Of a stretch of 64,000 nucleotides of DNA, positions 11,481 through 49,720 are shown in pieces; the first letter of the stretch is position 1; the number at the start of each line of letters is the position of its first letter. The position numbers and the translations under genes were made by a program. This stretch comes from Candidatus Bathyarchaeota archaeon (GTDB lineage Archaea > Thermoproteota > Bathyarchaeia > Bathyarchaeales > Bathycorpusculaceae). The notes below the pieces were generated by a model. It did no database searches. It saw only the letters and a list, made by a program, of their open reading frames with translations, and was not told the origin of the DNA. The stretch covers positions 352,001 through 416,000 of the forward strand of contig CAWHVC010000003.1 of NCBI GenBank assembly GCA_963832745.1. Direction: 5' to 3'.

Positions 11481-11482
11481 GT

Positions 11483-12688: not shown

Positions 12689-12694
12689 GGCTAC

Positions 12695-32731: not shown

Positions 32732-32862
32732 CAAGCCAACTTTAAACAAACTAAAATTTTTGTTAACAATTTTATCATGCTTTTTTTGGTTTCTTTAGGT
32801 AAGGGTTAAATGTCAAGGTCGCACATGCATACTTTAATAATCCGTAAAGGTTTGGTTAAAGA

Positions 32863-33478
32863 AATGCAATCCGCTAAATCAGGAAGGGCATTCGTTTCAG
32901 TTGACCCAAGCAAATGCATCGGATGTGGACTTTGCGAGTTTGCTTGCACCTTAGAGAAAGGCGAGCAGGTTTGGAACCCAATCCGTTCAAGAATCCGTGT
33001 AGTCCGCATGGCACCCATGTTCAATTTTGCTTTATCATGCCGCGGATGCGATGACGCAAGATGCGTAAAATCATGCCCCGAAAAAGCAATCACCCAATCA
33101 GAAACTAACCACCTGCTAATTATTGACGAAAAGAAATGCAAAGGCTGCGACTGGTGCGTTCAAGCTTGCCCACGCGGTGGAATCACCATTCACACTGGCA
33201 CAGGGAAAGCTATAGCATGCAACCTCTGCGAAGGCGAACCTAAATGTGTTGAAATATGCCCTGAAGATGCACTAGAAATTGTTAGTTCTGACGAAGAAGC
33301 AGATAAACGCTTTAACGATGCATTGGAAAATCTGCCTGCAGTAACAGAAAAACTGGCGACACAAATAAAGAATCGTGAATGGAAGCCACTGCTTGCTACT
33401 TCAGAGCAACGTACACAAAAAATTACTGAGAAGCTTCAATCCTTAAACAAGAAAGCACTCGAGAAACAACACAAATAA
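32863..33478 (+). CDS. 4Fe-4S dicluster ferredoxin-like protein (DmsB/HycB type)
   Basis: CIGCGLCEFAC, CRGC...C...CP, CKGCDWCVQACP and CNLC...C...CP. Confidence 0.88.
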
Positions 33479-33503
33479 TCCTCTCTTTTAACCGGTTTCT
33501 TTT

Positions 33504-34370
33504 TTATTTACTGTTTACAAGTGGCTTTTCCCCTTCAAAACCTCTTAAGAGGTTATCAATGTCTGCCCCGTTTTTTTCGCCCATATAGCCGCCTTCAAAC
33601 ACAAAAAACGTTGATTTGCCTAATTTTGCAATCCGTTGTCCAATCTGGTAAAAACTTTTTTCAGTAAGTGCCAACGAGGCTAAATCGCCCAAGTGCGTGT
33701 CACAGCCGACTGAAACTGCCAACACTTCAAACTCGCCCAAATCAACCATGCCCAAAGCTTCATCCAAAGTACTAAGATAAACGTCTTCTCCACAATCGCT
33801 TGGCAGTCCATAATTAATGCAGTTGCCTTCGGTTAATGCGCCCGTTCCAGGGTAATTAGGTGACTGATGCACTGAAACATAAGAGACTTTGGGGTCGCCT
33901 TGAAAAACTTCTTGTGTGCCATTGCCATGGTGCCCATCAATATCTAAAATCAACGTAGGTTTATTGAGTTCTTTTACGGCAATTGCAATGTTGTTTAGAT
34001 AACAGAATCCTCGTGTGTAAACTCCAAGCGCAGCTCCGTACCTGCCAACATGATGTCCCGGAGGCCGCGTTAATGAGAAACCGTTGATTTTTGACGCTAA
34101 AATTGCTCCGCCGACTGAAAGTCTTGCGTACTCAAAAATTTTGTCATACGCGGGCGTATCGGTGTCTTCAACTAAGCCTTTTTTTAGGTTCCAAAGGTAC
34201 TCGGGGTCATGAACCGACATTATCTGGTCTTCTGTTGCAGGTTTTGGTTCAACGAATTCGTAGCCGCGGTCAAAAAGAATGTCTTTTGCAACTTTAACTC
34301 GTTGGGGTCCTTCAACATGCCAGGTGCCGTAGCCTAAGCATTTGTCTGAGTAGACAATCCTTGTTTTCAT
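33504..34370 (-). CDS. Histone deacetylase family (AcuC/HDAC) protein
   Basis: RPPGHH, GFCYLNN, DIDGHHGNGTQ and EGGY. Confidence 0.92.
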   Translation of the reverse strand: MKTRIVYSDKCLGYGTWHVEGPQRVKVAKDILFDRGYEFVEPKPATEDQIMSVHDPEYLWNLKKGLVEDTDTPAYDKIFEYARLSVGGAILASKINGFSLTRPPGHHVGRYGAALGVYTRGFCYLNNIAIAVKELNKPTLILDIDGHHGNGTQEVFQGDPKVSYVSVHQSPNYPGTGALTEGNCINYGLPSDCGEDVYLSTLDEALGMVDLGEFEVLAVSVGCDTHLGDLASLALTEKSFYQIGQRIAKLGKSTFFVFEGGYMGEKNGADIDNLLRGFEGEKPLVNSK

Positions 34371-34466
34371 GTCTCTCTGCCATTAGACAGATAAGCATCG
34401 GTTTCACATTTAAAATATAACCATAAAACAGTGATAAACGCCTGCTAACATGGAGAAAAAAAGACT

Positions 34467-36419
34467 TTGACAAATGAAAACCCGTTTGATTTGTTCCGCC
34501 AAGAATGCCGCGCCGCATTAGCGCAAGCCATAGAAAAGACCTTTCCAGACGCTGCCCTGCCAACTATCAACTTAAACAAAACTCCAAACATCGAGTTAGG
34601 CCAACTTGCTTCTTCACTGAGTTTTGAGTTGGCAAAAAAACTAAGCATGAAACCCCTCGCGGTCGCTGAGCAGCTTGTCAAAGCTATTGATAAGTCACGG
34701 TTTGATTTAATTGAAAAAATCGAAACCGCAGGTGCAGGCTACATAAATTTTTACATTAATTTCCTAAAGTTTTCCCAGTTAACATTAGAATCAATTAAAG
34801 CTCAAAGCAAAAGTTACGGTTACATAAAAACGGGAGCACCAACAAAAATCATAGTCGAACACACCAGCGTCAACCCCTTGCATCCAATTCATATCGGGCA
34901 AGCACGAAACCCCATGATAGGCGACACCCTTGCACGCATCCTAAAGCTGCGTGGTCACGACGTTTCAACCCACTACTATATTGATGATGTGGGTCGTCAA
35001 TCCAGCGTGGTCGCTTACGGTTATGAGAAGCTGGGCAGACCTAAACCAACCGAAAAACCGGACCTTTATGTAGGCAAAATCTACACAGTCACTTGTTGCA
35101 TCGTCGAAATCAGTCGGCTTAAAAAAGCAAAAGAAGCTGCAGTGGCGGCCAAATCATCAGATGATTTTGTCAAGGTAAACAAGGAACTTGATGAATGGAC
35201 ATCAATCGCGGCTGAACTAACAGAAAAATACCCTGTCCTCTTTGAAGCTTTACTAACAAAAATTAATGAAGATGAAAATCCAGAAGAAGAAATCAACCGC
35301 TTAAACCGCAAATACGAAGATGGCGAACCCAATGCTAAACAGCTTATTCGGGAAGTCAGCGATTTGTGCCTTGATGGTTTCCGCCAAACTCAAAGCCGCG
35401 TGTCGGTGCATTATGATTCTTGGGATTGGGAAAGCGATTTTGTTTGGAGCGGTCAAGTTAACGAAGTCATGGCTAAACTGAAAGCTTCGCCGTTTCTTTA
35501 CTTTGAAAACGGTGTATGGGAGTTTGACGCAAACAAAGTCGCAGACGTTATGCAGCTTAAACCGAAATTGAGCATGAAAGAAAACCATGAAATCCCACCC
35601 TTAACTTTGATGCGTGCTGACGGAACCACTCTTTACACGACCCGTGATGTTGCTTACAGTGTTTGGAAGTTCCAGCGTGCAGATAAAGTCATTAATGTTA
35701 TTGGTATGGAGCAGTCTTTGGCGCAGTTACAACTTAAAGTGGCGCTTTACGCTTTAGGCTACACCAAAGAAGCAGAAAACTTTGTCCATTTTGCATATAA
35801 CTTGGTGTCGTTGCCTGGTTACAAGATGAGTAGCCGTCGTGGACATTACATCACTTTTGACCAAGTCCTCGACGATGCAGTTGAACGTGCTTATCAGGAA
35901 GTTTGCAAACGTTCACCCATGTTTACTGAAGAAGAGAAACGCAGCATCGCCAACTTTGTCGGCATCGGCGCCGTCCGCTACGCCTTAGTTGATGTGGACC
36001 CGGGCAAACAAGTTGTTTTCACTTGGGACCGCGTGCTTAACTTTGAAACCAACAGCGCCCCCTACGTGCAGTACACTCATGCAAGAGCCTGTAGCATCCT
36101 GCGAAAAGCCGCCGTCGACAACACAACTGCCCCAGCTTTTGAAAAGTTAACTGAAAAACTTGAACGAGAACTAATCCTGCAACTCGCTGGGTTCCCAGAC
36201 ATGTTCATAGAAGCCACAGAATACCTTAAACCAAGCATGATAGCTGACTACGCAAACGCGCTTGCAGACAAATTCAACACTTTCTACAATGCGTTACCAG
36301 TCATTAAGGCTGAAACTTCCGAGCTTAGTAGTGCACGTTTAGCTTTGACTGATGCCATCCGAACAGTGCTAAGCAATGCTTTGGCGTTGATTGGGGTTAT
36401 TGCACCCGAACGCATGTAA
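34467..36419 (+). CDS. argS: Arginine--tRNA ligase
   Basis: EHTSVNPLHPIHIGQARN, KMSSRRG and YVQYTHAR. Confidence 0.97.
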   Translation: MTNENPFDLFRQECRAALAQAIEKTFPDAALPTINLNKTPNIELGQLASSLSFELAKKLSMKPLAVAEQLVKAIDKSRFDLIEKIETAGAGYINFYINFLKFSQLTLESIKAQSKSYGYIKTGAPTKIIVEHTSVNPLHPIHIGQARNPMIGDTLARILKLRGHDVSTHYYIDDVGRQSSVVAYGYEKLGRPKPTEKPDLYVGKIYTVTCCIVEISRLKKAKEAAVAAKSSDDFVKVNKELDEWTSIAAELTEKYPVLFEALLTKINEDENPEEEINRLNRKYEDGEPNAKQLIREVSDLCLDGFRQTQSRVSVHYDSWDWESDFVWSGQVNEVMAKLKASPFLYFENGVWEFDANKVADVMQLKPKLSMKENHEIPPLTLMRADGTTLYTTRDVAYSVWKFQRADKVINVIGMEQSLAQLQLKVALYALGYTKEAENFVHFAYNLVSLPGYKMSSRRGHYITFDQVLDDAVERAYQEVCKRSPMFTEEEKRSIANFVGIGAVRYALVDVDPGKQVVFTWDRVLNFETNSAPYVQYTHARACSILRKAAVDNTTAPAFEKLTEKLERELILQLAGFPDMFIEATEYLKPSMIADYANALADKFNTFYNALPVIKAETSELSSARLALTDAIRTVLSNALALIGVIAPERM

Positions 36420-36435
36420 CTTTCCTCTTCTACAA

Positions 36436-36573
36436 TTCAACATGTTAATGGCGCGTTTTTTAGCCAATAGCACCTACCCCCCTTAGTGATTGCTGTTTTC
36501 ACAAGTTTTTTGAGTTTCTACCTACCCTATAGGTTCTGCATATTATTTCTAATAGGATCCAAATAGGTTGGTG
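36436..36573 (-). repeat. Dispersed non-coding repeat, copy 3
   Basis: Reverse complement reads CACCAACCTATTTGGATCCTATTAG...CCTATAGGGTAG...CACTAAGGGGGGTAGGTGCTATTGG...CATTAACATGTTGAA. Confidence 0.85.
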
Positions 36574-36582
36574 GAGAAGTGT

Positions 36583-36637
36583 TTGGTGCGGAGGGTGGGA
36601 TTTGAACCCACGAACCCCTGCGGGATAGGAGCCTCAG
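36583..36637 (-). repeat. Outer att site: 3' part of tRNA-Leu from the anticodon loop to CCA
   Basis: Identical to 52742-52796; on the minus strand it starts exactly at the 7-nt anticodon loop CTGAGGC. Confidence 0.95.
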
Positions 36638-36691
36638 GGCGCTTTGCGCCAGTCTCTTTGATGATGCCATACGGGTGCAACGTTTACCCGT

Positions 36692-37039
36692 TTGAATTAT
36701 GACGAGTTTAAGGCGGTCTTTATAGGCAATAGCAAAAAAGTATTCATCAGCTATATCCCATCTGAAATAGGTGAAAGAATTGCAAAGGGCAATACTGTCA
36801 ATTACGATCGGGTGCAGAAGCTAGCGGAGTGTCATTTGAAAAGACTCTGTTACGCTGATTTGCGTGAACTTTTCGCTTCGTTATCGGTCAAAAATTTGAA
36901 GCAACCTGAAATCGATTTCTTGCAAGGAAGAATAGCTGCTATCGTTTTTCTTAGAAATTACTTTAACCCTCAGTTCATAAATGATCTACAAAAAAGAGCA
37001 TTACAAAACGCTCGTGAAATGCTACCTTACAACTGGTGA
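36692..37039 (+). CDS. Hypothetical protein (115 aa)
   Basis: First ORF of a co-oriented four-gene cassette; no motif recognised. Confidence 0.5.
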   Translation: MNYDEFKAVFIGNSKKVFISYIPSEIGERIAKGNTVNYDRVQKLAECHLKRLCYADLRELFASLSVKNLKQPEIDFLQGRIAAIVFLRNYFNPQFINDLQKRALQNAREMLPYNW

Positions 37040-37088
37040 TATAGTAGACCTACGAAGACATTATATTACCCACAACTAAATACAAAAG

Positions 37089-38183
37089 GTGGAAAAAATG
37101 GTTACCAGTGAAGAACTCGATGCATTAGACGATATATGTTTCGTAACAATTGACCAGTTTCTTAGGAATCATAACTTATCCGTTTTGGACAACAGATTGC
37201 TTGCAAATTACAAGGGTGAATTGGATGCTATTGCTGTAATGAGAGATATTTGGCTTAAAGAAATGCAAGCATCTCCTGAAAAACTAATAGATGTCTATGA
37301 ACAAACAAACGACCGCAAAAAAGTCATACATTATGAGAATCTTGTTGATGCTACACTAATCAATTTTGCAGCAGAACTTTTTGCCTCCATTCTTGGCGGG
37401 ATTATAAGCGGCATTATTGTGGCAGAATACTCAGAAAATCGAAAAAAGATCTACACAGGGATTAAGAAACTTTACAGAAAACCAATAGACAAGTTAAATG
37501 AAGCGGCGGGTAAAGTTTATGAAAAGTACGAAAAAGCCTTGAGGTATATCTTCCGTGCTTTGATACTGAAGAGTTATACTGAAAAACGCCAACTTCCATT
37601 TGACCAATATTTGCATGTTAGAGAAAGCATACGCCAAGAAGTTTATGGGTCTTCAAAGGCAAACTTGTCAAACGAGTTTGAGCAGTTCGAGAGATGTTTC
37701 CTATTTAATCACGGCTTACTAGATATGAAAGATTCGTTTGCCCAAAAGATTGCATTTGAACTAATCAAAAATTCAATTGATACAGACATTCCCAGTAGGA
37801 GTAAAACGCTTATCTCACAGACATCAGAGATTAGTCCAAAAGATTTTGATTCATACGAAGTAATTTTAACTGGTCTTGGGTGCGGAAAAAAAGGCATCGC
37901 CGCTGGCGAGGTTGCACTTGTTCTCTCTTACGATGATTGTCAAAACGTAAAATTAGGGGACGTCATGGTTTTTCATGAAATGAACCCAGACTATGTAGAG
38001 GCAGCAAGACGTTCGTCAGCTTTAATTGCAGAGGTGGGAGGTTTAACGTCTCACACCTCAATAATTGGTAGAGAACTAATGAAACCTGTAATCGTTAGCG
38101 CTGAAAATGCCACAACAATACTAAGAAACAGAGAAAAAATAATTGTTGATTCGACCAAAGGTGTTGCCTTTGCCCAAACATAA
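37089..38183 (+). CDS. Protein with a C-terminal PEP-utilising-enzyme mobile (phosphohistidine) domain and an unknown N-terminus
   Basis: GDVMVFHEMNPDY...GGLTSHTSIIGRELMKPVIV...VDSTKG. N-terminal hydrophobic helix FAAELFASILGGIISGIIVA. Confidence 0.8.
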   Translation: MEKMVTSEELDALDDICFVTIDQFLRNHNLSVLDNRLLANYKGELDAIAVMRDIWLKEMQASPEKLIDVYEQTNDRKKVIHYENLVDATLINFAAELFASILGGIISGIIVAEYSENRKKIYTGIKKLYRKPIDKLNEAAGKVYEKYEKALRYIFRALILKSYTEKRQLPFDQYLHVRESIRQEVYGSSKANLSNEFEQFERCFLFNHGLLDMKDSFAQKIAFELIKNSIDTDIPSRSKTLISQTSEISPKDFDSYEVILTGLGCGKKGIAAGEVALVLSYDDCQNVKLGDVMVFHEMNPDYVEAARRSSALIAEVGGLTSHTSIIGRELMKPVIVSAENATTILRNREKIIVDSTKGVAFAQT

Positions 38184-38246
38184 TGATGAAAAATTCGCAA
38201 GTATTTTATACAAATTAAACACAATAAGCTGTCCAAGAGAAAAAAA

Positions 38247-39344
38247 ATGAAAACATTTGAAATAGATTCGCTTCCTTTCGCTCTAGAGCTAATGCTTAAT
38301 GAATTTACCAAATTATCGTTAAAGAAAAAGTGGGGATCGATAAAGGTCATAACGCTTTTCTCTGAAACCTCCTTTGAAAATTTAGTTAAGAGAATAAACT
38401 CTTCAGACATGGAAGTTAAAAGCGATAAAGTAAATGATACCGATGGAACCACTTTATTTTCTTGCACTGCACTAAGAGTATTTAGAAGAAATGGTGAAGA
38501 AACAAAAATAACAGGCAACTTCTATGCAATCCAGAAAAAGCCTTTCTTGTATTTAATTACTGGAGAAAGAAATCCCTTTTTACCGAAAATACTTGCGCCT
38601 ATTGCAAAGAATTTTTACCCCGATGCTATCAGGACATTTATTACCTCTGAGGATTTACTCCAATTATTATCGGATTTTTCAACAACAAAAGGGATTGAAC
38701 TTCGATATACTGAATTTGTTTACAAAAGCATGTTTGAAAAAGCATTCACCGATAGAAGAAATGAAAAAAGAGGTGCCTTTGCTGAATATTCCCCTTATTT
38801 TATGGCGTTTAAGAAAGCTAGAGAACAAGGAGGACGCGTTGACCGAATCAAGGTTTTTGGAGGAGGCAATTCATTTAGTATCTCACGAAGCGGGATTATC
38901 AAAATATATTCAGGAGTTTTCACCAATTTTTATCAATTCTTTATGGCAAGAATCGGCACAATTTCAGTTGAGCGATGGAAAGTTTTCGAAAAGAGAGCTA
39001 GATCAGAAACCCCCAATAAAATACCTAGACCTGTTTTAGTAAATTTTGATACGAACGTTTTTGATGATATCGCCGAGAGAAAGCTACTAATCAAAATTTT
39101 AGCAGAGTACAGTAATTGTGAATATTCAATCATACATGGCGGAAACCCACATGTTTACGTTGCCATCCTTGACAAAACGGATAACTCCTCTTTTACGGTT
39201 AGAACCTACGAAAATAATTCACTCTTGCTTACACCACAAATTAGAACAACAAAATCTTCGCTAGTTAGATTTTCCAAGTTCCTGTTGGATCGGTTCCAAG
39301 AAGGAATACCCGCGGAGTTCCAAATTGAGGGTGCTGTAACTTGA
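38247..39344 (+). CDS. Hypothetical protein (365 aa), coupled to the downstream nuclease gene
   Basis: Long ORF whose TGA stop overlaps the TTG start of the next gene by 4 nt. Confidence 0.75.
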   Translation: MKTFEIDSLPFALELMLNEFTKLSLKKKWGSIKVITLFSETSFENLVKRINSSDMEVKSDKVNDTDGTTLFSCTALRVFRRNGEETKITGNFYAIQKKPFLYLITGERNPFLPKILAPIAKNFYPDAIRTFITSEDLLQLLSDFSTTKGIELRYTEFVYKSMFEKAFTDRRNEKRGAFAEYSPYFMAFKKAREQGGRVDRIKVFGGGNSFSISRSGIIKIYSGVFTNFYQFFMARIGTISVERWKVFEKRARSETPNKIPRPVLVNFDTNVFDDIAERKLLIKILAEYSNCEYSIIHGGNPHVYVAILDKTDNSSFTVRTYENNSLLLTPQIRTTKSSLVRFSKFLLDRFQEGIPAEFQIEGAVT

Positions 39345-40405
39345 TTGACGCTAAAGTTGCAGCCTTCGAAGCAGTAGAACGACAAAAGAAGCTTCAGAAG
39401 CTAAAAGATGAACGTTTGGTGGAATATGACCGATATTACCAAACAGTTCTACTTACTCTAGGATTAAAAAACTATTTAGAAACGCATGCAAGAGATTGTC
39501 GATTTATATCCGCTGAACCTTGTTTCTCAAATTCTCAGGGCTCGGAGATTAGACCCGATATAGTGCTACAACATAACGGAAAGAAAGGTATTCTATGTGA
39601 AGTTAAAACGTCAATGCCCCAAAAAGACGAGCATTTGCTTGCGACATTGAAACAATTAGAGCGATATTCTCAAGAAGTTTTTGGTTGGGAAACGATAGAT
39701 AGAACGGTAGATTTTCACGAAACGTTGCTTTTATGTCATGCCTTTGATTATGACAGAGTTTCTGAAAAGCTGTCCCAATGGTCAAAGGAAGGTTTGCTGA
39801 AGATTTCTAACGTGGTCTTGTGTGAGTGGATAATGGCACCTAACCCAAAAACCGCGAAAGAAGAATTAATGATACGGTTAAGGGAGGGCAGAACTAGCTG
39901 CGAAGAACTAAACTTGCTTTTGAAGAAGAACATAAACGTAGATATCAAGCAATTAATTGTCGAAGTTGAAGAGTGCAAATTTACTCGAAAAGAACCGCCT
40001 GTGGAATATACAATGGCTCAATTATGGATGCACGTTTTTTCAGAAATCAACCGAGACCCAATTGATTTCGAAGTCCCCATAAACAAGCTACTGGAAATTG
40101 TTTATGATTATTACATTTCATGGTCTAATATAGAAGGAGAATTTTCACAAGTCAGGGAGAGATGGATAAAAAAGGCTATGCAGGCATTTTGTAACATTGG
40201 AATGGCAACTCCAGTTACGGAAAAACCAAATACTTACAAAATCTTGACTTCAAAATCAATTCCGAAAAATGTTCAAGAATATGTAATTGAACGCCTTTGT
40301 GAAAAGGCATTGGATGAAAAGATTCCTAAAAAAAGCATTGTTCTGAGACCAGAGGAAAATAAGCAAATTACTGATTTCTTAGGTGGCAAAAAACCAAACG
40401 GATAG
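39341..40405 (+). CDS. PD-(D/E)xK nuclease domain protein
   Basis: IRPDIVLQ...ILCEVKTS...QLERY matches the restriction-endonuclease-fold signature PD...ExK...QxxxY. Confidence 0.72.
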   Translation: MIDAKVAAFEAVERQKKLQKLKDERLVEYDRYYQTVLLTLGLKNYLETHARDCRFISAEPCFSNSQGSEIRPDIVLQHNGKKGILCEVKTSMPQKDEHLLATLKQLERYSQEVFGWETIDRTVDFHETLLLCHAFDYDRVSEKLSQWSKEGLLKISNVVLCEWIMAPNPKTAKEELMIRLREGRTSCEELNLLLKKNINVDIKQLIVEVEECKFTRKEPPVEYTMAQLWMHVFSEINRDPIDFEVPINKLLEIVYDYYISWSNIEGEFSQVRERWIKKAMQAFCNIGMATPVTEKPNTYKILTSKSIPKNVQEYVIERLCEKALDEKIPKKSIVLRPEENKQITDFLGGKKPNG

Positions 40406-40893
40406 CTTACAAGCAAGTTTTCTGTGATTTTAAAATTGGGTTATCCGTTTTTTGCTCTATGAGTTATGTTTGCCCGCATAATGCGGTAAGAAGTTGGCGG
40501 GGGCTAGCGTCATTTTGGGTTAATGAATAATTGCATTTAGCAAAGAGAAATTATCTACCCAAATTTTCTGCACCTGCTGGAAACTGGCTAAGGTAATAAG
40601 CTATAGGTTATTAATACGGCTAAAACTAAATTCTTAGTAATTAGCAAATTATTAATTATTAAGAAAACAAGTGGATACCTTAGGTAGTGCCATGTCCGAT
40701 GCTTTTTAGCTCTTTTGCAAAATATCCTGTTTGACCTTTGCTATCGCTCGTTTACACGCACTATAGCGGTTGCAAAGGAAAAACTAGAGCCAATGTGTGG
40801 CATACAATTCCCCGCAAATCTATGGTAAACAATTTGTTGGTAAAATGGTAAACATGGAAAAAGCCGATTCCGTGTTCCTTTATCAAAAGGAAC

Positions 40894-40918
40894 TGGTGCG
40901 GAGGGTGGGATTTGAACC
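40894..40918 (-). repeat. Inner att site: last 25 nt of tRNA-Leu (T-loop to CCA)
   Basis: TGGTGCGGAGGGTGGGATTTGAACC is identical to 52743-52767 and 36584-36608. Confidence 0.92.
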
Positions 40919-40992
40919 AATGGATTTTCTTTCCCGAAAGAAACCCCAGCTAAAGAAAGGGCGTCCTTGTTATTGGTTGATTGTGTTTCCAT
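40894..40992 (-). CDS. Integrase N-terminal fragment int(N)
   Basis: METQSTNNKDALSLAGVSFGKENPL-VQIPPSAP reads through att in the same frame as int(C). A GGAG lies upstream of the ATG. Confidence 0.75.
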
Positions 40993-41007
40993 ATGCTTGT
41001 TTTCTCC

Positions 41008-41077
41008 GTAACAGATTATGTTACAATAAATTAGTTAGCGATAGACAGATATAAACGTAACGTAATATGTTACGTTT
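41008..41077. promoter_or_regulatory. Two GTAAC-N7-GTTAC palindromic operators in a divergent promoter
   Basis: At 41008-41024 and 41057-41073. The second extends to the perfect inverted repeat AAACGTAAC/GTTACGTTT (41053-41077). Confidence 0.65.
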
Positions 41078-41088
41078 GAGGTGTTACG

Positions 41089-41256
41089 GTGCATAAGGAA
41101 TTACTCAGCGACAAAGAACGGCTAATACTAAAGCACTTTTTGGAGTCAGGAGAAAAGCAAGAAGGCTTTAGAATGCTCAAAATGCGTATACTTCGCAACT
41201 ATTCCCTGATAAGTGAAGATTTCAAATTAATTACAGAGTTAAAACAAAAGCTATAG
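41089..41256 (+). CDS. Small 55-aa basic helical protein, candidate repressor or directionality factor (absent from the ORF track)
   Basis: MHKELLSDKERLILKHFLESGEKQEGFRMLKMRILRNYSLISEDFKLITELKQKL, with a GAGGTG SD before the GTG start. Confidence 0.65.
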   Translation: MHKELLSDKERLILKHFLESGEKQEGFRMLKMRILRNYSLISEDFKLITELKQKL

Positions 41257-41338
41257 TAGCCTTATCAAGAGGCATTATAAACCAAATGCAAGTAAAGGCT
41301 ATTAGACAAATTAAGAATTCAACACTATCGGTCAGGTT

Positions 41339-42121
41339 TTAGGGGCTTTTTGATTCAAACAATGGGTTTTTCTTCATAATTTCATTCCATTCAACAATCT
41401 CTTGCTTAAAAATCGCACATACCGACTTGTAGAACTCTTGGTAGTACTTTGTATAAAGGTCAAGGTATTTTTCAACATGTAGGTCAATTTGAGCATCATA
41501 CTTGAAATTAAAATTATTAATTATATTCAACGATTCCTTTGACCAGCCCTTACCTGTATATCTTCCAGAAGGGCACCAACTTAATAATTGGTCTTTATCT
41601 AACGTGAGGCTGATATTGTAATTCCGATTTTTTAGTGGTGGTATAACATACCAATAACTAGCAAAACATAGCGAATAATGGTCATAATACCGTCTGATAT
41701 CATTAAGGAATTTGACGCTTCCATTATTGCAGAAATTATTTTTTGCTATCTCAAAATCATCAATGGATTTAAGCTTCTCTGAAATCTTTTCATCAATCTC
41801 AATATTTCTCATATGTTGAAGTGCAGAGTATGCATCTGAACAAAAATGCTTGATATGACGATTTAACGCAAGAACTTTCAAGTAATTATCATCATACTCA
41901 TCTTGTGCTTTCTCCATCTCTATTTCCATTAGCTTTTGAAGTTCTTTTAACAAATCCTCTTTATCCAATTGGAGCAAATAACAATCTTCATCCAGTCTAT
42001 CCAGATTGCGTATAATTCTTCCACCAACAGATTGCTCCTTTAATTTTTGCCAATCCAAGTATTTTATTTTACCCACTCTCAGTTTTAGCAATGGTCTAGT
42101 TATTGGCTTAAAGTTTTTCAT
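41339..42121 (-). CDS. Hypothetical protein with a HEPN-like Rx4H motif
   Basis: FLNDIRRYYDHY in a helical protein. Confidence 0.55.
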   Translation of the reverse strand: MKNFKPITRPLLKLRVGKIKYLDWQKLKEQSVGGRIIRNLDRLDEDCYLLQLDKEDLLKELQKLMEIEMEKAQDEYDDNYLKVLALNRHIKHFCSDAYSALQHMRNIEIDEKISEKLKSIDDFEIAKNNFCNNGSVKFLNDIRRYYDHYSLCFASYWYVIPPLKNRNYNISLTLDKDQLLSWCPSGRYTGKGWSKESLNIINNFNFKYDAQIDLHVEKYLDLYTKYYQEFYKSVCAIFKQEIVEWNEIMKKNPLFESKSP

Positions 42122-42174
42122 AATTTAGATTCTACGGATAATTTTTTTAAGCAATTTAGCAGTATATTGCGTTT

Positions 42175-42897
42175 ATGTCTAATGCTCTCAAAGGTCTATG
42201 TGTAGCTGTACTTATTGTTGGCATAGTGCTATCGGCTACAATGTTTATAGTCAAATTTCCAGTAGCCACTCAAGTTCCCTACCAAGTACAAGTACCGTAT
42301 GAAGCAACAGAAACAAAGACTCAAAACTTAGACCACCGAGAGAGCTACCAAATACAAAGCGGACATCTTGCTTACTCGAACTTTGACCTTGAAGCTGGAA
42401 AAAGTTTAGTGGTCACTTGGCAGGTTGATAATACAGTATCTGTGTATATAACAACCCCTTCACAATTTGACTCAGCAAAACTATTGGGTATCCCTACCTC
42501 TTCTTTGTCAAGAGAGCAAATGACAGGTTCAGGCACGTTATCTTATCAGATACCTAGTGCTGGAACATACTATGTTATAATCAGCCCCTATATGAGTGAT
42601 GTAAACGTGGCTTCTTACAAATCTGACCTACAATGGCAAGAGCAAGTAACTAAGTATAGAAGTGAAACAAGATACCAATATGAAACAATTTACACATCAA
42701 GCACTTTTGGAATCAATTTAGGTGTAAGCATTCTAGTCTTAGGCTGTATCTTAACACCGCTAAGCTTTGTGAATATTAAGCCGATGATTAAGAAAACAAA
42801 AAATTTTAACAAAGTAACTTGTGATTACTGCAATACAACCTATGACAAACATATAGACAAGTGTCCTCATTGTGGAGCAAGAAATAAAGTCCTTTAG
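42175..42897 (+). CDS. Membrane-anchored beta-sandwich protein with a C-terminal Zn ribbon
   Basis: TM helices at both ends, PSAGTYYVII and CDYC...CPHCG. Confidence 0.7.
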   Translation: MSNALKGLCVAVLIVGIVLSATMFIVKFPVATQVPYQVQVPYEATETKTQNLDHRESYQIQSGHLAYSNFDLEAGKSLVVTWQVDNTVSVYITTPSQFDSAKLLGIPTSSLSREQMTGSGTLSYQIPSAGTYYVIISPYMSDVNVASYKSDLQWQEQVTKYRSETRYQYETIYTSSTFGINLGVSILVLGCILTPLSFVNIKPMIKKTKNFNKVTCDYCNTTYDKHIDKCPHCGARNKVL

Positions 42898-42953
42898 GTT
42901 TGTTTCTTTTTTGCTAAGTCTTTTATGTTACAACCTAACAAACAAAGCACGAC

Positions 42954-43691
42954 ATGACAGCAGATTCAAGTGAAGACATCTTTCGGATTCAATTAGGGCA
43001 AAATAGCATTAAATTGCTTCAATTCAGAAAAAATAAGTCATCTGGTGATATTTACGGGTGGTTTGGTATTCCAGACGTGGGTTTGCATATTTCGGGGCAT
43101 ATGCCAAAACCACCGCTCCACCCATATGCACATTTACACCTAAAGAGCGATATTTTGGGAATTCATGAAGATATTGCTGATTTTGACCCTACTGATGTAG
43201 CGGATTATTATCGAGATTTTGCAGAGGATTTTATTAATGACTTCTATGAACCAGAACCAGATGAATCTATAACGATGCTTCCCATGACAGCACATACTTT
43301 TACATCTGGAAGCTTTAATGTGCCACGTCTGTTCCAAGCGATGACAGGAACATATTACCGCACAAATGGCAATAGGCTCTCTAGACTTTTGACTAATAAC
43401 CCATCTCTTTTAGATACCATTGGAATTTCAGACAATGGGATAGTATTACCTATTGATACAAATGTCATCTTTGAAATTCCATTCAAGTCACGCTTCAATT
43501 ACTTCAATAAATTACTTTTAGGTAAACCGCTAAGTTCATTTGCCGACCCGATAACAAAAGCATTAGAAATTGTTCAACGTAATAGCCCAAACTCTTTAAC
43601 TAAATGGATTCCACCTTCAACTGTTGGAAGCTTCATTCAAGAAACCCAAGCTATTATCAAAAAAGCAAAACCGCAAATAATCGATTACTAA
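42954..43691 (+). CDS. Hypothetical protein (245 aa)
   Basis: ORF with the His-rich segment HISGH...HPYAHLHL; no family recognised. Confidence 0.6.
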   Translation: MTADSSEDIFRIQLGQNSIKLLQFRKNKSSGDIYGWFGIPDVGLHISGHMPKPPLHPYAHLHLKSDILGIHEDIADFDPTDVADYYRDFAEDFINDFYEPEPDESITMLPMTAHTFTSGSFNVPRLFQAMTGTYYRTNGNRLSRLLTNNPSLLDTIGISDNGIVLPIDTNVIFEIPFKSRFNYFNKLLLGKPLSSFADPITKALEIVQRNSPNSLTKWIPPSTVGSFIQETQAIIKKAKPQIIDY

Positions 43692-43750
43692 AAACTCAAA
43701 AGAACAACTTGCAATTAAATGCTTAAACAAAAAGGAAAAGAAAGGAATAT

Positions 43751-44479
43751 TCAAGATACTGGTTGAATGCTGTAGCTTTTTGCACTGTAGGGTGCTTCTT
43801 TACCGCATTCGGGACAGAATTTACTATTGTTTACAACCGTTCCACAGTGCAAACAAATCTTTGTTATTGGCTGACTTTGGTTATTGAGTGCATCTGGTTT
43901 AAATGATACTGCCAGTATCCCACCAATTAACCCAAATATTGTTCCAAGCCCCATTATCGAGGAAATAATGATTGTGTTACCCCATTTTGTATGTTCTGCG
44001 GGATTAGCCATCATCTTTCTAGCTGAATGTATTATAATTACTGCTGAAAGCAAACACAACAAACCTATCCCCAAATATATTCCGAAATAGGCAAAATAGG
44101 GGTCTGTAACATAAGTTCCTGTTCCATAAGGAGTAGTAACCCACCAACGTCTTACTCCACCCATTCCAGTATTTGATGGAATAGAATAAAACAAATTAGC
44201 ACAATATACGCCAAATGCAATAAGAACTAAAGAAATGAAAGTCCCTATGGAGCCGCCAACCATTGAAAAATTGTAGGCACTTGTTGGTTTGCTCATAATC
44301 ATTTGATTACGTAGATTTTCTTCAGTGGTTGATTTATTCGCTTGAGTAGTTGGGATAGAAATAACCGCCTTCCTACAGGCTTTACAAAGATATTTCCCGT
44401 TAAATTCTGGATGCTCTGTTTGAGACATCCATTTAGTACCATCAAAGGTTCTTTTTTCGCATCTTGTACACTTAGGCAT
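43751..44479 (-). CDS. Membrane protein with N- and C-terminal Zn ribbons
   Basis: CTRC/CKAC, three TM helices and CLHCG...FCPECG. Confidence 0.7.
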   Translation of the reverse strand: MPKCTRCEKRTFDGTKWMSQTEHPEFNGKYLCKACRKAVISIPTTQANKSTTEENLRNQMIMSKPTSAYNFSMVGGSIGTFISLVLIAFGVYCANLFYSIPSNTGMGGVRRWWVTTPYGTGTYVTDPYFAYFGIYLGIGLLCLLSAVIIIHSARKMMANPAEHTKWGNTIIISSIMGLGTIFGLIGGILAVSFKPDALNNQSQPITKICLHCGTVVNNSKFCPECGKEAPYSAKSYSIQPVS

Positions 44480-44544
44480 TGAAACCATTCCTTTTTATTC
44501 AAAACGTATTATCGATAAGTAGACAGCTTATTCTTTAAAAGTTT

Positions 44545-44608
44545 GTGCTACCAATGGGTGCTACTCCATTGGTGCTCGAAAAAACACTTGTTCAACATAA
44601 GGTGCTAC
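44545..44608. promoter_or_regulatory. Four (G)GTGCT(AC) direct repeats plus a CCAATGG/CCATTGG inverted repeat
   Basis: GTGCT at 44545, 44558, 44572 and 44602, upstream of the AbrB-like gene. Confidence 0.55.
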
Positions 44609-44625
44609 CAAATTAGGGACACAAC

Positions 44626-44814
44626 ATGATTGAAGGCGAAGGTAAAATGATAAATCGCCCAACACAAACCGGCGGAAAAACCTACGACAAATACTTCATT
44701 TACATACCAATCGAAGTCGCCAGAGATACTGCATTCCCATTTAAACCTCAAGAAAAATTAAAAATAAAAATTGACATAAACAACAGAATGCTAACAGTAA
44801 AAAAAATTGAATGA
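44626..44814 (+). CDS. AbrB/SpoVT-like small DNA-binding protein
   Basis: Swapped-hairpin pattern YFIYIPIEVARDTAFPFKPQEKLKIKID. Confidence 0.7.
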   Translation: MIEGEGKMINRPTQTGGKTYDKYFIYIPIEVARDTAFPFKPQEKLKIKIDINNRMLTVKKIE

Positions 44815-44895
44815 CAGCTACTCCATAATTTTCAATTGAACGAGCAAATATGTTTTGAGTGCTTTTAAGTTAGCCACAGTAAGCGTCCATCTACA

Positions 44896-45351
44896 GTGAA
44901 AAAGATGTCTGTTAATTATACTTCGAAAAGTGCCCTATTAAAAGAAGTCTTAACAAGAGCCAACAAAAAAGAAAAACAAGAATACGAAAACATACTCAAA
45001 AAACAAATTGTTTTAGGCGAAAGATTTGACACCATTTTGAAGGAATGGCAAACCATCAGAGACAAACAAAACCACAAATATGGCCCACAAGAACCAAAGA
45101 AAAGCCAGAAATCCACAGAAGAAATGTCTACAGATGAATTCATGCGAGAAATGAAAGAGCATAACAAGTATTTTCATGACTCCCTTGAATGGAACACTGA
45201 GCAAATTGCAACCAACAATAGGCAGATAGAAAAAATCAGTCAATTAATAGAGTTAACAACTGAGTTCATATCCCTTGAAAGTGAAGTAAAATGGCTTTTA
45301 CTTTCTATAGCTCTCAGAACGCAACCAAATTTGCTGAGATATATAAAATAA
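44896..45351 (+). CDS. Hypothetical coiled-coil protein
   Basis: Charged helical ORF. Confidence 0.55.
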   Translation: MKKMSVNYTSKSALLKEVLTRANKKEKQEYENILKKQIVLGERFDTILKEWQTIRDKQNHKYGPQEPKKSQKSTEEMSTDEFMREMKEHNKYFHDSLEWNTEQIATNNRQIEKISQLIELTTEFISLESEVKWLLLSIALRTQPNLLRYIK

Positions 45352-45778
45352 CGATAAGAAATATACTATGTGACATATTAAATGTCTAACATCCATAATG
45401 CAGTCGCTGACTAAACAAATACCCCGTATATTATGCAAATACCCCCGCAATTGTAAAGAGCCAGAGGGGTTTTATTTTACATATATAAAAACTTCCTTTT
45501 AAATAGCCAGACAATTGAAGAATTGACTCCACAGTTGACCGTATGAGCCACTGATTGTCCATGTTAGGAACTGATTTCAAACAACCGGTTCCAGAATCAG
45601 TGTCATGGAAAAGCATGGACTATTCGGTTTCAGGAACTGAATAACCAATAGAAATGATACAACCATATAAGGGTAAAATTAGAAGTTAATTAATAAATAA
45701 TAACATTATGTCAATTTAGTTACTTTTATAGGGGCATTTTTGCCCAAAATCGGTGAATCAGTTCCAGCAAGTATTGGC

Positions 45779-46162
45779 TTAAAACTCATAATAACTGCCT
45801 AGTTCTTTTGCTACTTGTTGCCAAATCTGCTTATTGCTAACTTTCCGTTTAACACCTTTTTCTGCTCTTTCACTTTCCAAACGACCTCTTGTATGATTAA
45901 AGAGTATTTTTGTAGATGAAGTGAATAGAGACCGCCCTGTTAGCTCAAGTTCAAATTTAAGGTCTGTTTTTTCCAGAATAAGTGGTAAATCGGTGATGAT
46001 GGCAACTATAGCTTTCTGTTTGATTATGTTCTTCATTTGTCTGTGTTTCTTTATTTTGTCATTCTGTAATCTTTCTCTTTCGATATCTGTTAGTATTCCT
46101 CTGTAGGGCTTTCTTGAGTGCTTATCGTTTTCTATGGAAATTGTCACGTTGAGGCACGACAT
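45779..46162 (-). CDS. Small basic protein divergent from the replication genes, putative regulator
   Basis: RGILTDIERERL resembles KELLSDKERLIL in the ORF at 41089. Confidence 0.55.
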   Translation of the reverse strand: MSCLNVTISIENDKHSRKPYRGILTDIERERLQNDKIKKHRQMKNIIKQKAIVAIITDLPLILEKTDLKFELELTGRSLFTSSTKILFNHTRGRLESERAEKGVKRKVSNKQIWQQVAKELGSYYEF

Positions 46163-46203
46163 AAGTTGTAAGCAGTTTGATGCTATATATAATATACTAA
46201 AAT

Positions 46204-47785
46204 ATGGTGGAAATATTGACAGAAGAATTAGAAGATAGCGGTTCTATTCCGCTAATAAGTACCGATGGATTGACTCCATCAAATAATAATCAAGTAAAAG
46301 ATAAAAAAGAAAAGCCTAAGATAGTTTCAAAGTCACTTTTATTCATTGGCGATGATATTGAAAACTATAGTAAACGTGGACTTTATGAAGCTGTCTTTTT
46401 TAATAGTCAACCCTATTTCTTGCGATGCTTTAACGCTGACCGAACAGGTAATAGTCCTAAACTGTTTGCCCTTCAAAAATCAATTTCAACTTATGAGGAA
46501 TCGACAAGCGGTAATCCTCAAAAAGTTATGTTTGCTCCCAAAGTTACTTCACTTGAACTGTTACCATTCGATTTTGGAGAAACAGAATTAGAATCTGTCT
46601 TTGAGGGTAACAAATACGCAATCCCAACAACTCAGGAACTGTTTGACCGCATTTATGCCATGATTAAACTGTATGCAGACATCTCTTCTGATTGGTTAAA
46701 TGTGAGCTCATTGATGGTTTTGATGAGTTACGAACAGCACAAGTTTAACTGGCTTCCATATCTGGGCATATTTGGCGATACTGGAAGTGGAAAGAGTGTC
46801 CTTACTGAGATTCTAAGTTATTTGTGTTACCGGTGTGGTTATTTCTTTGAAACAAATAGTGCTGACATCTATCAATATCTGAGCGAATATGAGGATACAA
46901 TCCCTTGTTTGGCTGAAGATGAAACTCAGGGACTAGAAAAAGATAGTGAAAAAATTAAAATTTACAAATCAGGTAGTTCAAAAAGTGGTAAGGTAATACG
47001 AATCCTACAAACCCCAAACGGTCGAAAGTTATTATCCTATCCAACATATTGCTTCAAAATCATAACAGGCGAACAAACTCCAACAGTTAAGGGGCTGAAT
47101 GAACGTATACTATGCATTCCTTCCTCCAAAGGCAAACCCTCAAAACATTGGTACGATAGAACCGATAAAGATACCAACGAAATTAAACGGTTAAAATGGG
47201 ATTTACTCAAGTGGCGCATGGCCAATTATTGTAATAGCTATCAGAATGAAATCAACTCTACGAGTAGGATAGAAGATAACCTAAAGCCCCTAGAAGTGTT
47301 GGCGAAAGGATTATCGATATCATCAGACCTTGAAAAATGGGCAAAAGAAACAATACAAAAAAGCGAAAGCGAAAAGAAATCGACCCTTGAAGGCTGTACC
47401 GTTGAAGCCGTGTATACAATAATAAACAGAGGACTATTTGCAAAGGAAACTGTACTTCAAGGTCAATTAGCTTCAAAACTCTTCATTAGCTTTGATACTA
47501 TTTGGGAACAAATTAAAACAATCACTCTAGGCAACAATGGATAATGAAAAATTGCAGACCGTTGAGTTTGGTGAGATTACTAAGAACAAGATTGGTAGAA
47601 TTCTAAGCAATATTTTTGCTAGTAAATCAGTTTCAAAAGCGGATGCCACGAATAATAAAGTTAGGTGCCGTTCATTCGAAATAGAGATGTTACTAAGGGT
47701 TATAAGCAATTATTTTGATGAACCTGAAACTGAACGATTGAACCTAAAAATTCAGCAAAGTAACGGCGAAGAAGCAGAACTCTAA
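46204..47785 (+). pseudogene. P-loop ATPase/helicase of the replication module, apparently split by a frameshift near 47535
   Basis: Walker A GDTGSGKS, Walker B CLAEDE, NER motif. The ORF at 47537-47785 continues a wHTH-like C-terminus (EFGEITKNKIGRIL). Confidence 0.65.
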
Positions 47786-47798
47786 AGGCGCGTTAAAT

Positions 47799-48818
47799 AT
47801 GTCAGAGAATCACATAACAAAAGAAGAGCTATGGGAAGAGTTTTTTGGAAATTTTGGAAGAGACTTCGGAAATCCGCAAAGGTGGTTCTCAAACAATCCC
47901 TCAGATATTTACTGGTTCATCGATGAATGCACAAAAAATAAACTACCCGCATTTATGAGTGTTCAACCAAAGAATTATAAAAATACAATCAAGGGCCTTG
48001 AGAAACTGTTTTTTGATTTTGATTACTCAGCAACAACTCAAGCCACAGCTATAGATGAAATAAATAAATTACGAAAAGAAATGGAGAAAGAAGTTACATT
48101 CTTTCTAAAACACTTGGATGAATTAAACATAAAACCTCTTGTGGTACAAACGTACAAAGGCTTTCATGTCTATGTTTACCTAGATTATGTCTACAGTTTA
48201 AAAGGGCAAGATAAACTATTGAAAGAAGTGTATAAGCAGTTACAGCTAGCACTCTTACAAGGTTATGAATACAGATTTATTGATTGGCACGTTATTGGCG
48301 ATATTAATCGCCTTTCTCGAATTCCATTATCAATTCACCAGAAGACAAGCGCAGAATGCATAATAGTTGACAATCAACTTAGACCCGATAAGATAAGAAG
48401 TTTAGAGTTTTTCAAGTTATATGGCTTAAAAGAAGCTGATATAAACGCAATCATAAAAAAGATAGTTAAAAACAAGAAGCCGATAGATAGCACTCCAAAA
48501 GACTATCCTATTAACTCAACCAACAACTTCAAAGATATTCGACCATGCTTCAAAAAAGCAATGGTTGCTAGAGAAATGTGCCATGAACAAAGACTTGCCT
48601 TGTTGCTAGAGATATATTCTCTTGGCAACCATGACATAGATAGTATAGTTCAATATTTTACGTGTTTCAATGACTTTAACGAAGATGAAACAAGTAAGCA
48701 AGTGCAATGGTTCCTACAGAATGAGATAGAGAGAGGATTCACTAAACCATACCGATGTAAAACAATAGCTGATAAAGGTTGGTGTATAGGTGAACAATGC
48801 CCTCTTAAAATTAATTGA
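47799..48818 (+). CDS. Archaeo-eukaryotic primase: PriS catalytic domain fused to a PriL-like Cys-rich domain
   Basis: LFFDFD, TYKGFHVY and DINRLSRIP, then IRPCF...HEQRL...YRC...WC...CP. Confidence 0.82.
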   Translation: MSENHITKEELWEEFFGNFGRDFGNPQRWFSNNPSDIYWFIDECTKNKLPAFMSVQPKNYKNTIKGLEKLFFDFDYSATTQATAIDEINKLRKEMEKEVTFFLKHLDELNIKPLVVQTYKGFHVYVYLDYVYSLKGQDKLLKEVYKQLQLALLQGYEYRFIDWHVIGDINRLSRIPLSIHQKTSAECIIVDNQLRPDKIRSLEFFKLYGLKEADINAIIKKIVKNKKPIDSTPKDYPINSTNNFKDIRPCFKKAMVAREMCHEQRLALLLEIYSLGNHDIDSIVQYFTCFNDFNEDETSKQVQWFLQNEIERGFTKPYRCKTIADKGWCIGEQCPLKIN

Positions 48819-49454
48819 ACCACGTTTTAGGATGCCTAAAAAGCCCCATTTCCAAAGATAGCTTTTCTGACTCGTTTTCTGCTATTTCCGAATAGACCAG
48901 AAAACCTAGAATGTAAGGCAACTTTAAACGAATTTTTACTAAACTAATCAACCTGTTACCTTGTTGTACCGTTACTCGCATTTTCTCGATATTCGGGGTC
49001 AATTTTCCAGTTGTCAGATATGTTGTATATACTGCAATCCCTCTTCGAATGCTCTTAGGCGAAGACCCCATCTTAATTTTCCAGTTAGAGACCAATAAAA
49101 GAAGCTAAAAAATTCTAATGGATAAAACTTCTTGATGTAGGGATTTTTGGAGTGTTGAATATAGTGTGCAAGTTCATGGTCAAGTATAACAAATTGCTTC
49201 TCTTTGCTCTCAAAGATTTTTGAACAGCTAACGTATACAGTGTTGTTTCGGTAAGATGATACTTCAGAAGATGTTATCTTAAGTTTGGGTTTGGTTACCC
49301 CTTCAACTTTAAGCGTATCTGTAACAATAGAAAATCTTTCTTCAAGCATTTGGTTAAGCTTCAATTCCTCTGTTCTTTTTTTCTTATAAAATAAGAATGG
49401 AAAACGCTTGAAAGTTGAATCAGAGATATTCATGGAAAACCTCAGTGAATTCAC
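48811..49454 (-). pseudogene. Zincin metallopeptidase-like gene, frameshifted near 49040
   Basis: HELAH and EEG in the 49014-49454 frame continue as IAVYTTYL in the 48811-49095 frame. Confidence 0.6.
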
Positions 49455-49534
49455 GTTACCTTTGCGATAAAGTTAGCGTTAAATCTTTAAATAAAACTTT
49501 TTACCGTTGAACCTAAACTTGGAGAGACAATAGT

Positions 49535-49720
49535 ATGGTTAAATGTATAAACTGTCAAAATCTTCTACAAGGTCATATGATACTTAGACCTGTTAATGGT
49601 GAAATAAAAGAATCCTGTATGTTATCTAAAGAAGTTATAGCTATGTCAGAAATTTCACGTATAGTAAATAATGATTTCGAATGTCAACAGGATGACGGAG
49701 AAACAGTTAAACCCCAATGA
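49535..49720 (+). CDS. Small CxxC protein
   Basis: MVKCINC..., with GGAGAG upstream. Confidence 0.45.
   Translation: MVKCINCQNLLQGHMILRPVNGEIKESCMLSKEVIAMSEISRIVNNDFECQQDDGETVKPQ

Follow-up and report, generated by a model that had tools for sequence, protein, structure and literature searches.

A two-gene nuclease operon with a candidate clamp-docking tail, carried by a decayed integrative element of a Candidatus Bathyarchaeota archaeon

Here we analyse a 64,000-nucleotide (nt) stretch of the genome of a Candidatus Bathyarchaeota archaeon (contig CAWHVC010000003.1, positions 352,001 to 416,000; hereafter the window), with a focus on two adjoining open reading frames (ORFs), ORF3 and ORF4, which encode a protein with a predicted DNA-binding scaffold and a predicted PD-(D/E)xK nuclease, respectively. 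On balance, the pair is probably an undescribed clamp-docking nuclease module that serves in defence or in conflict between genetic elements. The region that holds it is a decayed and, judging from its truncated integrase, immobilised integrative element of the Sulfolobus spindle-shaped virus (SSV) type at a tRNA-Leu(GAG) hotspot, and the ORF3-ORF4 operon is its meaningful cargo. A role in defence or conflict is favoured by the patchy distribution of the pair, by its carriage on integrative elements and plasmids, and by the restriction and defence genes that neighbour its relatives, while action on DNA, at replication forks or behind them, is suggested by the nuclease motif together with the DNA-binding folds and the clamp-type tail.

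The strict coupling of the two genes is the most direct result of the comparison. Pattern scans with ORF3 recovered 5 genome loci (from Methanosarcinales, Bathyarchaeia and one metagenome-assembled genome labelled 'bacterium') and 63 metagenome loci. At 62 of the 68 foreign loci, an ORF3 homologue is followed directly by an ORF4 homologue on the same strand, which is every one of the 62 loci with room for it; at the other six, the contigs stop 0 to 271 nt past ORF3. The gap between the genes is short (median 5 nt, with 61 of 63 gaps within -35 to +21 nt), and the pairwise identities of the ORF3 family correlate with those of the ORF4 family at r = 0.98 over 44 loci. No third conserved gene stands beside the pair across the loci. 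From these comparative data, a protein complex of ORF3 and ORF4 is likely, with ORF3 as the obligate partner of the nuclease. The pair is the cargo of att-bounded elements (att, attachment site) both in the window and at a second locus (L018; L numbers denote loci and G numbers genomes), and at its most minimal, in the element at L003, it is accompanied by an integrase as the sole other recognisable gene.

The original prediction had joined these two genes with the two upstream of them in a four-gene sensor/effector system in which phosphorylation of a histidine in ORF2 gates the nuclease. Its structural basis is real: the 25-nt repeat TGGTGCGGAGGGTGGGATTTGAACC has exactly three copies by exact-match count in the window (36584-36608, 40894-40918 and 52743-52767), with none expected from 100 shuffles, and the 4.3-kb unit between the first two holds four co-oriented, closely spaced ORFs with coordinates that needed no revision (Table 1). 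ORF2 also retains the phospho-acceptor motif TSH. A single four-gene system is nevertheless very improbable, because ORF1 is probably an integrase stub, ORF2 is found at none of the 68 foreign loci that bear ORF3 (tblastn), and the homology of the closest relative of the region is limited to ORF3 and ORF4. At that relative, L007, DNA homology to the window spans only 38243-40281, from 4 nt before ORF3 to within ORF4, and the gene order is an ORF1-like remnant, an ApeA (HEPN) gene in the place of ORF2, and then the pair. ORF2 thus occupies a variable slot, as both the ApeA gene at L007 and the lack of co-occurrence indicate, and gating of the nuclease by histidine phosphorylation is without comparative support since ORF2 accompanies the nuclease at none of these foreign loci. 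In addition, ORF3 has its own TATA-like box upstream (38203-38210, identified by eye). The alternative of two independent two-gene modules, also raised in the original prediction, comes nearer the truth, yet the real split, as far as sequence comparison can tell, is into an integrase stub, a solo ORF2 and the ORF3-ORF4 pair, which is the functional unit; only the last two genes travel together.

ORF1, previously described as a 115-residue orphan, is probably the C-terminal remnant of an integrase. It matches PF16795 (archaeal phage integrase) at E = 5e-4 over profile positions 69-150 of 161 (20.4 bits, below the 27-bit cut-off) and the PHROG integrase family phrog_5127 at E = 7e-5, and it shares 40% identity with residues 108-211 of a 221-residue, att-adjacent integrase part at L018. 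That integrase part directly adjoins a 51-nt copy of a tRNA-Thr 3' half; a second such copy is present, and the two enclose a 7.2-kb element including the ORF3-ORF4 pair. Relative to the C-terminal part retained there, ORF1 is without roughly the first 107 residues, and its catalytic domain is incomplete. The att copy lies only 55 nt from ORF1, with stop codons in every frame between them; the narrow space, the stops and the partial profile coverage together indicate that the N-terminal part of the catalytic domain is gone, and the element, termed element B in Table 1, would therefore be immobilised. The integrase of the neighbouring element A was rejected as the source of ORF1, to which it shows no similarity.

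ORF2 does contain the phospho-His (phosphohistidine) domain ascribed to it. Residues 290-358 match PF00391 with 66.9 bits against a cut-off of 23.1 (E = 1.2e-18), and the motif GGLTSH aligns with the phospho-His loop of phosphoenolpyruvate (PEP) synthase (8a8e). The ATP-grasp and PEP/pyruvate-binding domains, which would load the histidine, are absent in Pfam and NCBIfam searches, and scores against whole PEP-synthase-type protein models lie far under the cut-offs (for example, 85 against 598 bits). A search of 5.8 billion proteins returned a single homologue of ORF2, at 49% identity; its N-terminal 235 residues matched nothing, and in 400 other sampled genomes of the phylum this domain was likewise not found, one weak match aside. 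ORF2 is also missing from two plasmid loci of the pair, as far as gene tables and sizes tell, and pattern scans of the viral contigs in IMG/VR confirmed no relative. The start of the gene is probably the ATG at 37098. By its distribution, ORF2 is independent cargo and not part of the pair; it is possible that it acts as a solo defence gene or as a metabolic passenger.

The nuclease itself is well supported. ORF4 consists of an N-terminal helix (residues 2-49, 48 residues), a PD-ExK core (about 50-200), a winged helix (about 216-305) and a disordered tail. Across 50 homologues with 20-69% identity, P72, D73 and K89 are invariant, and E87 and an upstream glutamate, E59, are kept in at least 90%. 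The AlphaFold models of both proteins are confident, with a mean predicted local distance difference test (pLDDT) score of 89.7 for ORF3 and 89.9 for ORF4; the latter shows a restriction-endonuclease-like alpha/beta fold, and its closest structural matches are nucleases of the restriction type together with a winged helix. The PD-(D/E)xK call of the original prediction is upheld by these motifs and matches, and ORF4 is accordingly best described as a predicted PD-(D/E)xK endonuclease with a winged-helix DNA-binding domain. The unit was also correctly said to lack a methyltransferase, a helicase and an NTPase, none of which was found with Pfam, NCBIfam, PHROGs or PADLOC. When the ORF4 profile was compared with solved structures, the best hit (E = 0.02) was ribosomal L11, which we judged spurious.

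Among known enzymes, ORF4 recalls NucS/EndoMS, a PD-ExK endonuclease of archaea and actinobacteria that carries a clamp-binding motif at its C-terminus. However, no NucS family matched ORF4 in Pfam or NCBIfam at E ≤ 0.1, the N-terminal domain of NucS is absent from ORF4, and the generic nuclease domain alone superposes. Relative to NucS, ORF4 adds the long N-terminal helix, the winged helix and a separately encoded partner of 365 residues. NucS is, moreover, a chromosomal repair gene, whereas ORF4 is rare, mobile and island-borne.

The feature that sets this nuclease apart is its C-terminus, which carries a motif like the PCNA-interacting protein (PIP) box. In the ORF4 model, pLDDT falls below 50 at residues 330-341 and a short helix follows. 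The pattern [ILM]xx[FYW] lies within the last 15 residues of 48 of the 50 ORF4-family members. Of the 316 other ORFs at these loci, 61 have it, and shuffling the 50 ORF4 tails yields 4.8 on average; the canonical form Qxx[ILM]xx[FYW] is found in 16 of the 50 members against 2 of the 316 other ORFs. Examples from the family include MKRLDDFF, QKKLSEFI and QATLSDFF, and the ORF4 tail motif is similar to KTTQSTLDSFFK, which PMC4929162 gives as a PIP consensus peptide. The only members without the motif are those of L002 and L003, and at both loci a divergent PCNA gene overlaps the ORF4 stop (3219-3992 and 7695-8441, respectively). This PCNA is the second, lower-scoring copy of each genome (37.7 against 59 bits and 41.5 against 55 bits), and is thus an extra paralogue, given the better-scoring PCNA elsewhere in both genomes. 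At a further locus, L030, a PCNA homologue lies beside ORF3 (537-1250). The relative of ORF4 on an Arthrobacter plasmid ends in ...QPSLFDEF, a tail that we take to resemble the bacterial beta-clamp motif. Since the flexible tail of ORF4 ends in a PIP-like peptide, we propose that ORF4 most likely docks on PCNA through it. Separately, many distant ORF4 relatives (for example, those at L039, L040, L047 and L056) have an AT-hook-like, arginine-rich RGRPR stretch just before the PIP-like motif; this stretch is missing from the ORF4 of the window.

For ORF3, the predicted fold is more informative than the sequence. Residues 1-245 are modelled as a CENP-L/Iml3/RdgC-like two-domain DNA-binding scaffold, an alpha+beta arrangement that superposes on the RdgC/CENP-L/Iml3 fold group over most of its length, and residues from about 250 to 360 as a TBP/KA1-like domain. 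The C-terminal domain holds nearly all of the residues conserved in the family: S294, N300, P301, D309 and S314 are invariant, and H297 and D312 are kept in at least 90% of members. Neither ORF3 nor any of 50 family members matched PF04381 (RdgC) at E ≤ 0.1, and a sequence search of solved structures with the ORF3 profile gave nothing (best E = 1.3). RdgC, Iml3/Chl4 and lambda RexA are grouped as one DNA-binding fold in PMC11077077, and PMC11390915 describes another RdgC-like protein as part of a conserved operon that also encodes a histone and a membrane protein. A full-text literature search for RdgC-like proteins returned nothing on the ORF3-ORF4 pair. ORF3 differs from RdgC not only in lacking the PF04381 match but also in its extra, conserved TBP-like C-terminal domain. 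Lambda RexA is absent from the fold-match lists of ORF3, and the partner of RexA, RexB, is a membrane protein, whereas the partner of ORF3 is the soluble nuclease ORF4 and no membrane partner is conserved across the loci.

The family is large and its distribution uneven. A word-indexed search returned 25 relatives of ORF3 with 42-74% identity, and an exhaustive profile search returned 721 clusters (at 50% identity) at E ≤ 0.001, of which 602 were at E ≤ 1e-10. In a sample of 401 genomes of the phylum, by comparison, the ORF3 profile was positive in one, that of the window itself; none of the 10 genomes of the same genus in this sample had the family. Three plasmids were matched in a plasmid search with ORF3, and none in one with ORF4 (tblastn). 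On a Halosegnis marinus plasmid, the pair lies beside a DUF1156 methylase gene, and the gene downstream of the ORF3 relative matches the ORF4 profile with an hhalign probability of 98.9 (E = 2.7e-17); on the Arthrobacter plasmid mentioned above, a probable pair lies beside a methyltransferase and a helicase gene (probability 63%). A pattern scan of 2.9 million viral contigs (IMG/VR) confirmed no ORF3 relative.

These data bear on a first competing explanation, namely that the pair is a replication or repair accessory: a PCNA-coupled, structure-specific nuclease with a DNA-binding partner that acts in repair or in the replication or recombination of the element. The dedicated PCNA paralogue in the operons of L002 and L003 would suit such a function, as would the location of several loci among housekeeping genes, and RdgC is described as a modulator of recombination in PMC11077077. 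We still consider this explanation unlikely, because presence in one of 401 genomes is too patchy for core repair, absence from the viral contigs scanned would be unusual for a virus replication gene, minimal elements carry the pair with no recognisable gene other than an integrase, and the pair adjoins genes for restriction-modification, Cas1, ApeA, Hma and Tiamat.

A second competing explanation is addiction of the toxin-antitoxin type, in which ORF4 would be a toxic nuclease and ORF3 its neutraliser, the two stabilising plasmids or integrated elements. The strict two-gene coupling with the putative neutraliser upstream fits this arrangement, as does carriage on plasmids and integrative elements. 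Both proteins, however, are multidomain, of about 360 residues and equally conserved (mean column identity 40% in the ORF3 family and 41% in the ORF4 family), which is unlike a small, labile antitoxin, and plain addiction offers no evident use for a clamp-docking tail. We therefore hold addiction to be quite unlikely; it is compatible with defence, and the two are not exclusive.

The neighbourhoods of the relatives point towards defence or conflict, with qualifications. This comparison left out ten loci, each either the window's own or a near-duplicate (L001, L008, L011, L015, L016, L033, L037, L038, L041 and L069), and Pfam was applied to 202 ORFs within three genes of the pair at 59 loci. 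Neighbours include ApeA, SNF2/PLD helicases with Eco57I-type methylases, type I restriction-modification subunits, an NB-ARC/TPR protein, proteins with Schlafen-AlbA_2, NOV_C, GIY-YIG or DUF499 domains, integrases and a terminase. At L060, a dense defence island, the pair is flanked by strong matches to HmaC (3249-6272, 1e-147) and Tiamat TmtA (9810-13250, 2e-108). At two loci the gene immediately before the pair, in the same orientation, is cas1, which is intact at L019 (3308-4342) and split at L013 (1595-2710). At these two loci Cas1 holds the place of the integrase found elsewhere, and they could represent the border of a CRISPR locus or a casposon that has the pair as cargo. In PADLOC searches at E ≤ 1e-30, matches were obtained for 12 of the 148 genes no more than two positions from the pair and for 0 of the 91 at five or more genes away (Fisher p = 0.004).

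Known defence systems do not account for the pair. No family of PADLOC-DB 2.0.0 matched ORF2, ORF3 or ORF4 at E ≤ 0.1; none of 50 ORF3-family members had a match, and the matches of 4 of 50 ORF4-family members were weak (best E = 0.0015), with no significant model for either. In this respect the original prediction, which could assign the genes to no named system, agrees with our results. Shedu, Upx and type IV restriction are nuclease-based defences without a methylase, and gave no significant PADLOC match to the ORF3 or ORF4 families; we know of no such system with a clamp-docking tail or an RdgC-like partner. Among the papers listed in a full-text search on PCNA-bound nucleases with a PIP motif, none mentioned defence islands.

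A more distant lead comes from Pfam 38.1 families that are named for uncharacterised archaeal ORFs and have no function attached, namely PF25924 (MJECL33), PF27341 (AF_0896_M) and PF27326 (MJECL32). In ESM Atlas clusters that resemble ORF3, PF25924 is found in 42-79% of members, and in one cluster that resembles ORF4, PF27326 is found in 30%; the link of these families to ORF3 and ORF4 is a lead through cluster labels only. Two adjacent, overlapping genes on a Methanocaldococcus jannaschii plasmid are, by their numbering, presumably MJECL33 and MJECL32. Comparison with the plasmid proteins by hhalign was weak (probability 6.6% for ORF3, and 55.7% for ORF4 over the PD-ExK motif only), and we rejected these genes as direct homologues, keeping them as a distant lead. 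On this plasmid, pDSM2661_1 (L074, 13826-16340, minus strand), two overlapping hypothetical genes of 405 and 438 residues share an island with genes for VapBC, an OLD-type nuclease and type I restriction-modification; the PD-ExK motif of the downstream one is placed, in relative terms, as it is in ORF4, and the two may be very distantly analogous to the pair. A full-text literature search found no mention of 'MJECL33', and 'AF_0896' only in an unrelated context.

Several observations weigh against a clamp-docking module for defence or conflict. With regard to the tail, the motif in the window has N instead of Q at its first position and lies 7 residues before the C-terminus, the motif counts were taken over related family members and are not independent events, and C-terminal PIP motifs are typical of nucleases of replication and repair such as NucS, Fen1 and XPF, so that a repair role fits the motif equally well. 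No fusion of ORF3 and ORF4 was found among longer proteins at E ≤ 0.001, which is weak evidence. The PADLOC enrichment depends on its threshold: the cut at E ≤ 1e-30 was chosen after the data had been seen, and at E ≤ 1e-8 the near group gives 20 of 148 genes and the distant group 6 of 91 (p = 0.13). The expectation that known defence genes lie close by is borne out in that they are frequent neighbours of the relatives, but not in general, as a PADLOC neighbour within two genes is present in only 13 of 47 non-redundant loci. Many loci lie amid housekeeping genes, for example topoisomerase VI and IF-2 (L006), TFIIB (L012), ribosomal S9 (L062), and a KaiC-family ATPase and a thiamine transporter (L040).

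If the pair is a clamp-docking module for defence or conflict, ORF3 and ORF4 would form a complex that rides on PCNA, or is recruited by it, on replicating DNA. Within the complex, ORF3 would sense a state of the DNA or restrain the nuclease, and ORF4 would cut the DNA. A module guided by the clamp in this way would need no methylation-based self-marking. A wider interpretation, possible but in our view doubtful, is that ORF3 and ORF4 represent a widespread, unnamed class of immunity or conflict systems that is guided by the sliding clamp of the host and tells non-self by its replication state. This class would comprise the at least 721 ORF3 clusters at 50% identity, in archaea and possibly actinobacteria, with the nuclease docking on PCNA, on the bacterial beta clamp or on a dedicated PCNA paralogue encoded in the operon. 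Together with an RdgC/CENP-L-like partner that encircles DNA, the nuclease would destroy DNA replicating in the wrong way or place, be it that of an invading virus, a plasmid or a rival element, and recognition would rest on replication state rather than on sequence or methylation.

The setting of the pair is that of a tRNA-integrated island at a hotspot, as the original prediction had it (Table 1). The 25-nt repeat is the reverse complement of the 3' end of tRNA-Leu(GAG); identity to the tRNA region extends over 55 nt for the att copy at 36583-36637 and over 25 nt for the copy at 40894. ARAGORN and Rfam give the intact tRNA as the only one here, and the att copies are fragments of it. From the tRNA downstream, the order is tRNA-Leu, element A, att, element B, att and flank. 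The 4.3-kb unit is thus the inner member of two elements in tandem, an arrangement that the original prediction did not mention, and the outer att copy is the distal end of element B. The G+C content is about 0.43-0.46 in the flank and 0.35-0.39 in the elements. Element A also encodes several zinc-ribbon membrane proteins. By analogy with L018 and element A, the short ORF that starts at 40797 is probably the N-terminal stub of the split integrase gene of element B. In a genome of the same genus, G403, the same tRNA-Leu lies beside cysK, but the insert next to it, about 7.6 kb long, is another one, which ends in a further att copy with one mismatch and encodes none of the island proteins of the window; this different insert at the same tRNA identifies the site as a hotspot.

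Table 1. Coordinates of features in the window; positions count from its first nucleotide.
Feature	Position	Strand	Description
Arginyl-tRNA synthetase gene	34467-36419		Flank
Outer att copy	36583-36637	-	3' 54 nt of tRNA-Leu(GAG), anticodon loop to CCA, plus 1 nt; identical run with 52742-52796
Element B	36638-40893		Between outer and inner att copies
ORF1	36692-37039	+	115 residues; probable C-terminal remnant of an archaeal SSV-type tyrosine integrase
ORF2	37089-38183	+	Orphan N-terminal domain (about 1-235, one hydrophobic helix) and C-terminal PEP-utilizer phospho-His swivel domain
ORF3	38247-39344	+	Partner protein, 365 residues
ORF4	39341-40405	+	Predicted PD-ExK nuclease; 4-nt overlap with ORF3 stop
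PD-ExK catalytic motif of ORF4	39554-39607	+	P72 D73 ... E87 x K89
PIP-box-like motif of ORF4	40358-40381	+	NKQITDFL, residues 340-347; candidate PCNA docking peptide in low-confidence tail
Short ORF into inner att	40797-40918	+	Full ORF 40797-41054 passes through att
Inner att copy	40894-40918		25-nt match
Element A	40919-52742	.	Second integrated element, between element B and tRNA; context, outside the ORF3-ORF4 pair
Element A integrase N-terminal stub	40919-40992	-	24 residues
Element A P-loop protein	46204-47544
Element A primase-polymerase	47799-48818		PriS/PriL-like
Element A tyrosine integrase	51843-52814	-	323 residues; frame begins within tRNA, crosses att, reads outward from tRNA
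tRNA-Leu(GAG)	52743-52830	-	Intact, integration target; ARAGORN; Rfam tRNA 50.1 bits

The surroundings of the hotspot have also changed. A block of ferredoxin, deacetylase and arginyl-tRNA synthetase genes (window 32810-36419) is inverted relative to the tRNA-Leu-cysK site when compared with G403 (L092), and in another genome, G407 (L095), it lies about 28 kb away; the hotspot has thus undergone rearrangements. The spacer between the arginyl-tRNA synthetase gene and att (36436-36573) is a dispersed repeat of about 135 nt, with 24 matches listed for G000 and 25 for G407, the closest genome of the same genus, the full-length locus being counted in each; it resembles a miniature inverted-repeat transposable element (MITE) or a repetitive extragenic palindromic (REP)-like element. 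No public sequencing runs, including RNA runs, were listed that cover 36400-41100.

More generally, att-bounded cassettes can mislead, since decay products and independent passengers mimic the parts of one system. Defence has been charted far less well in archaea than in bacteria. At 2.2 kb the ORF3-ORF4 pair is small, and a haloarchaeal plasmid carries relatives of it, which should make it tractable to Haloferax-type genetics. Should the pair prove to be a defence module, the recruitment of an effector nuclease through the replication clamp would be a principle new to the defence literature that we searched. Immunity would then be coupled to the replication state of DNA, and a function would be found for a family of hundreds of protein clusters that has so far been named after uncharacterised archaeal ORFs.

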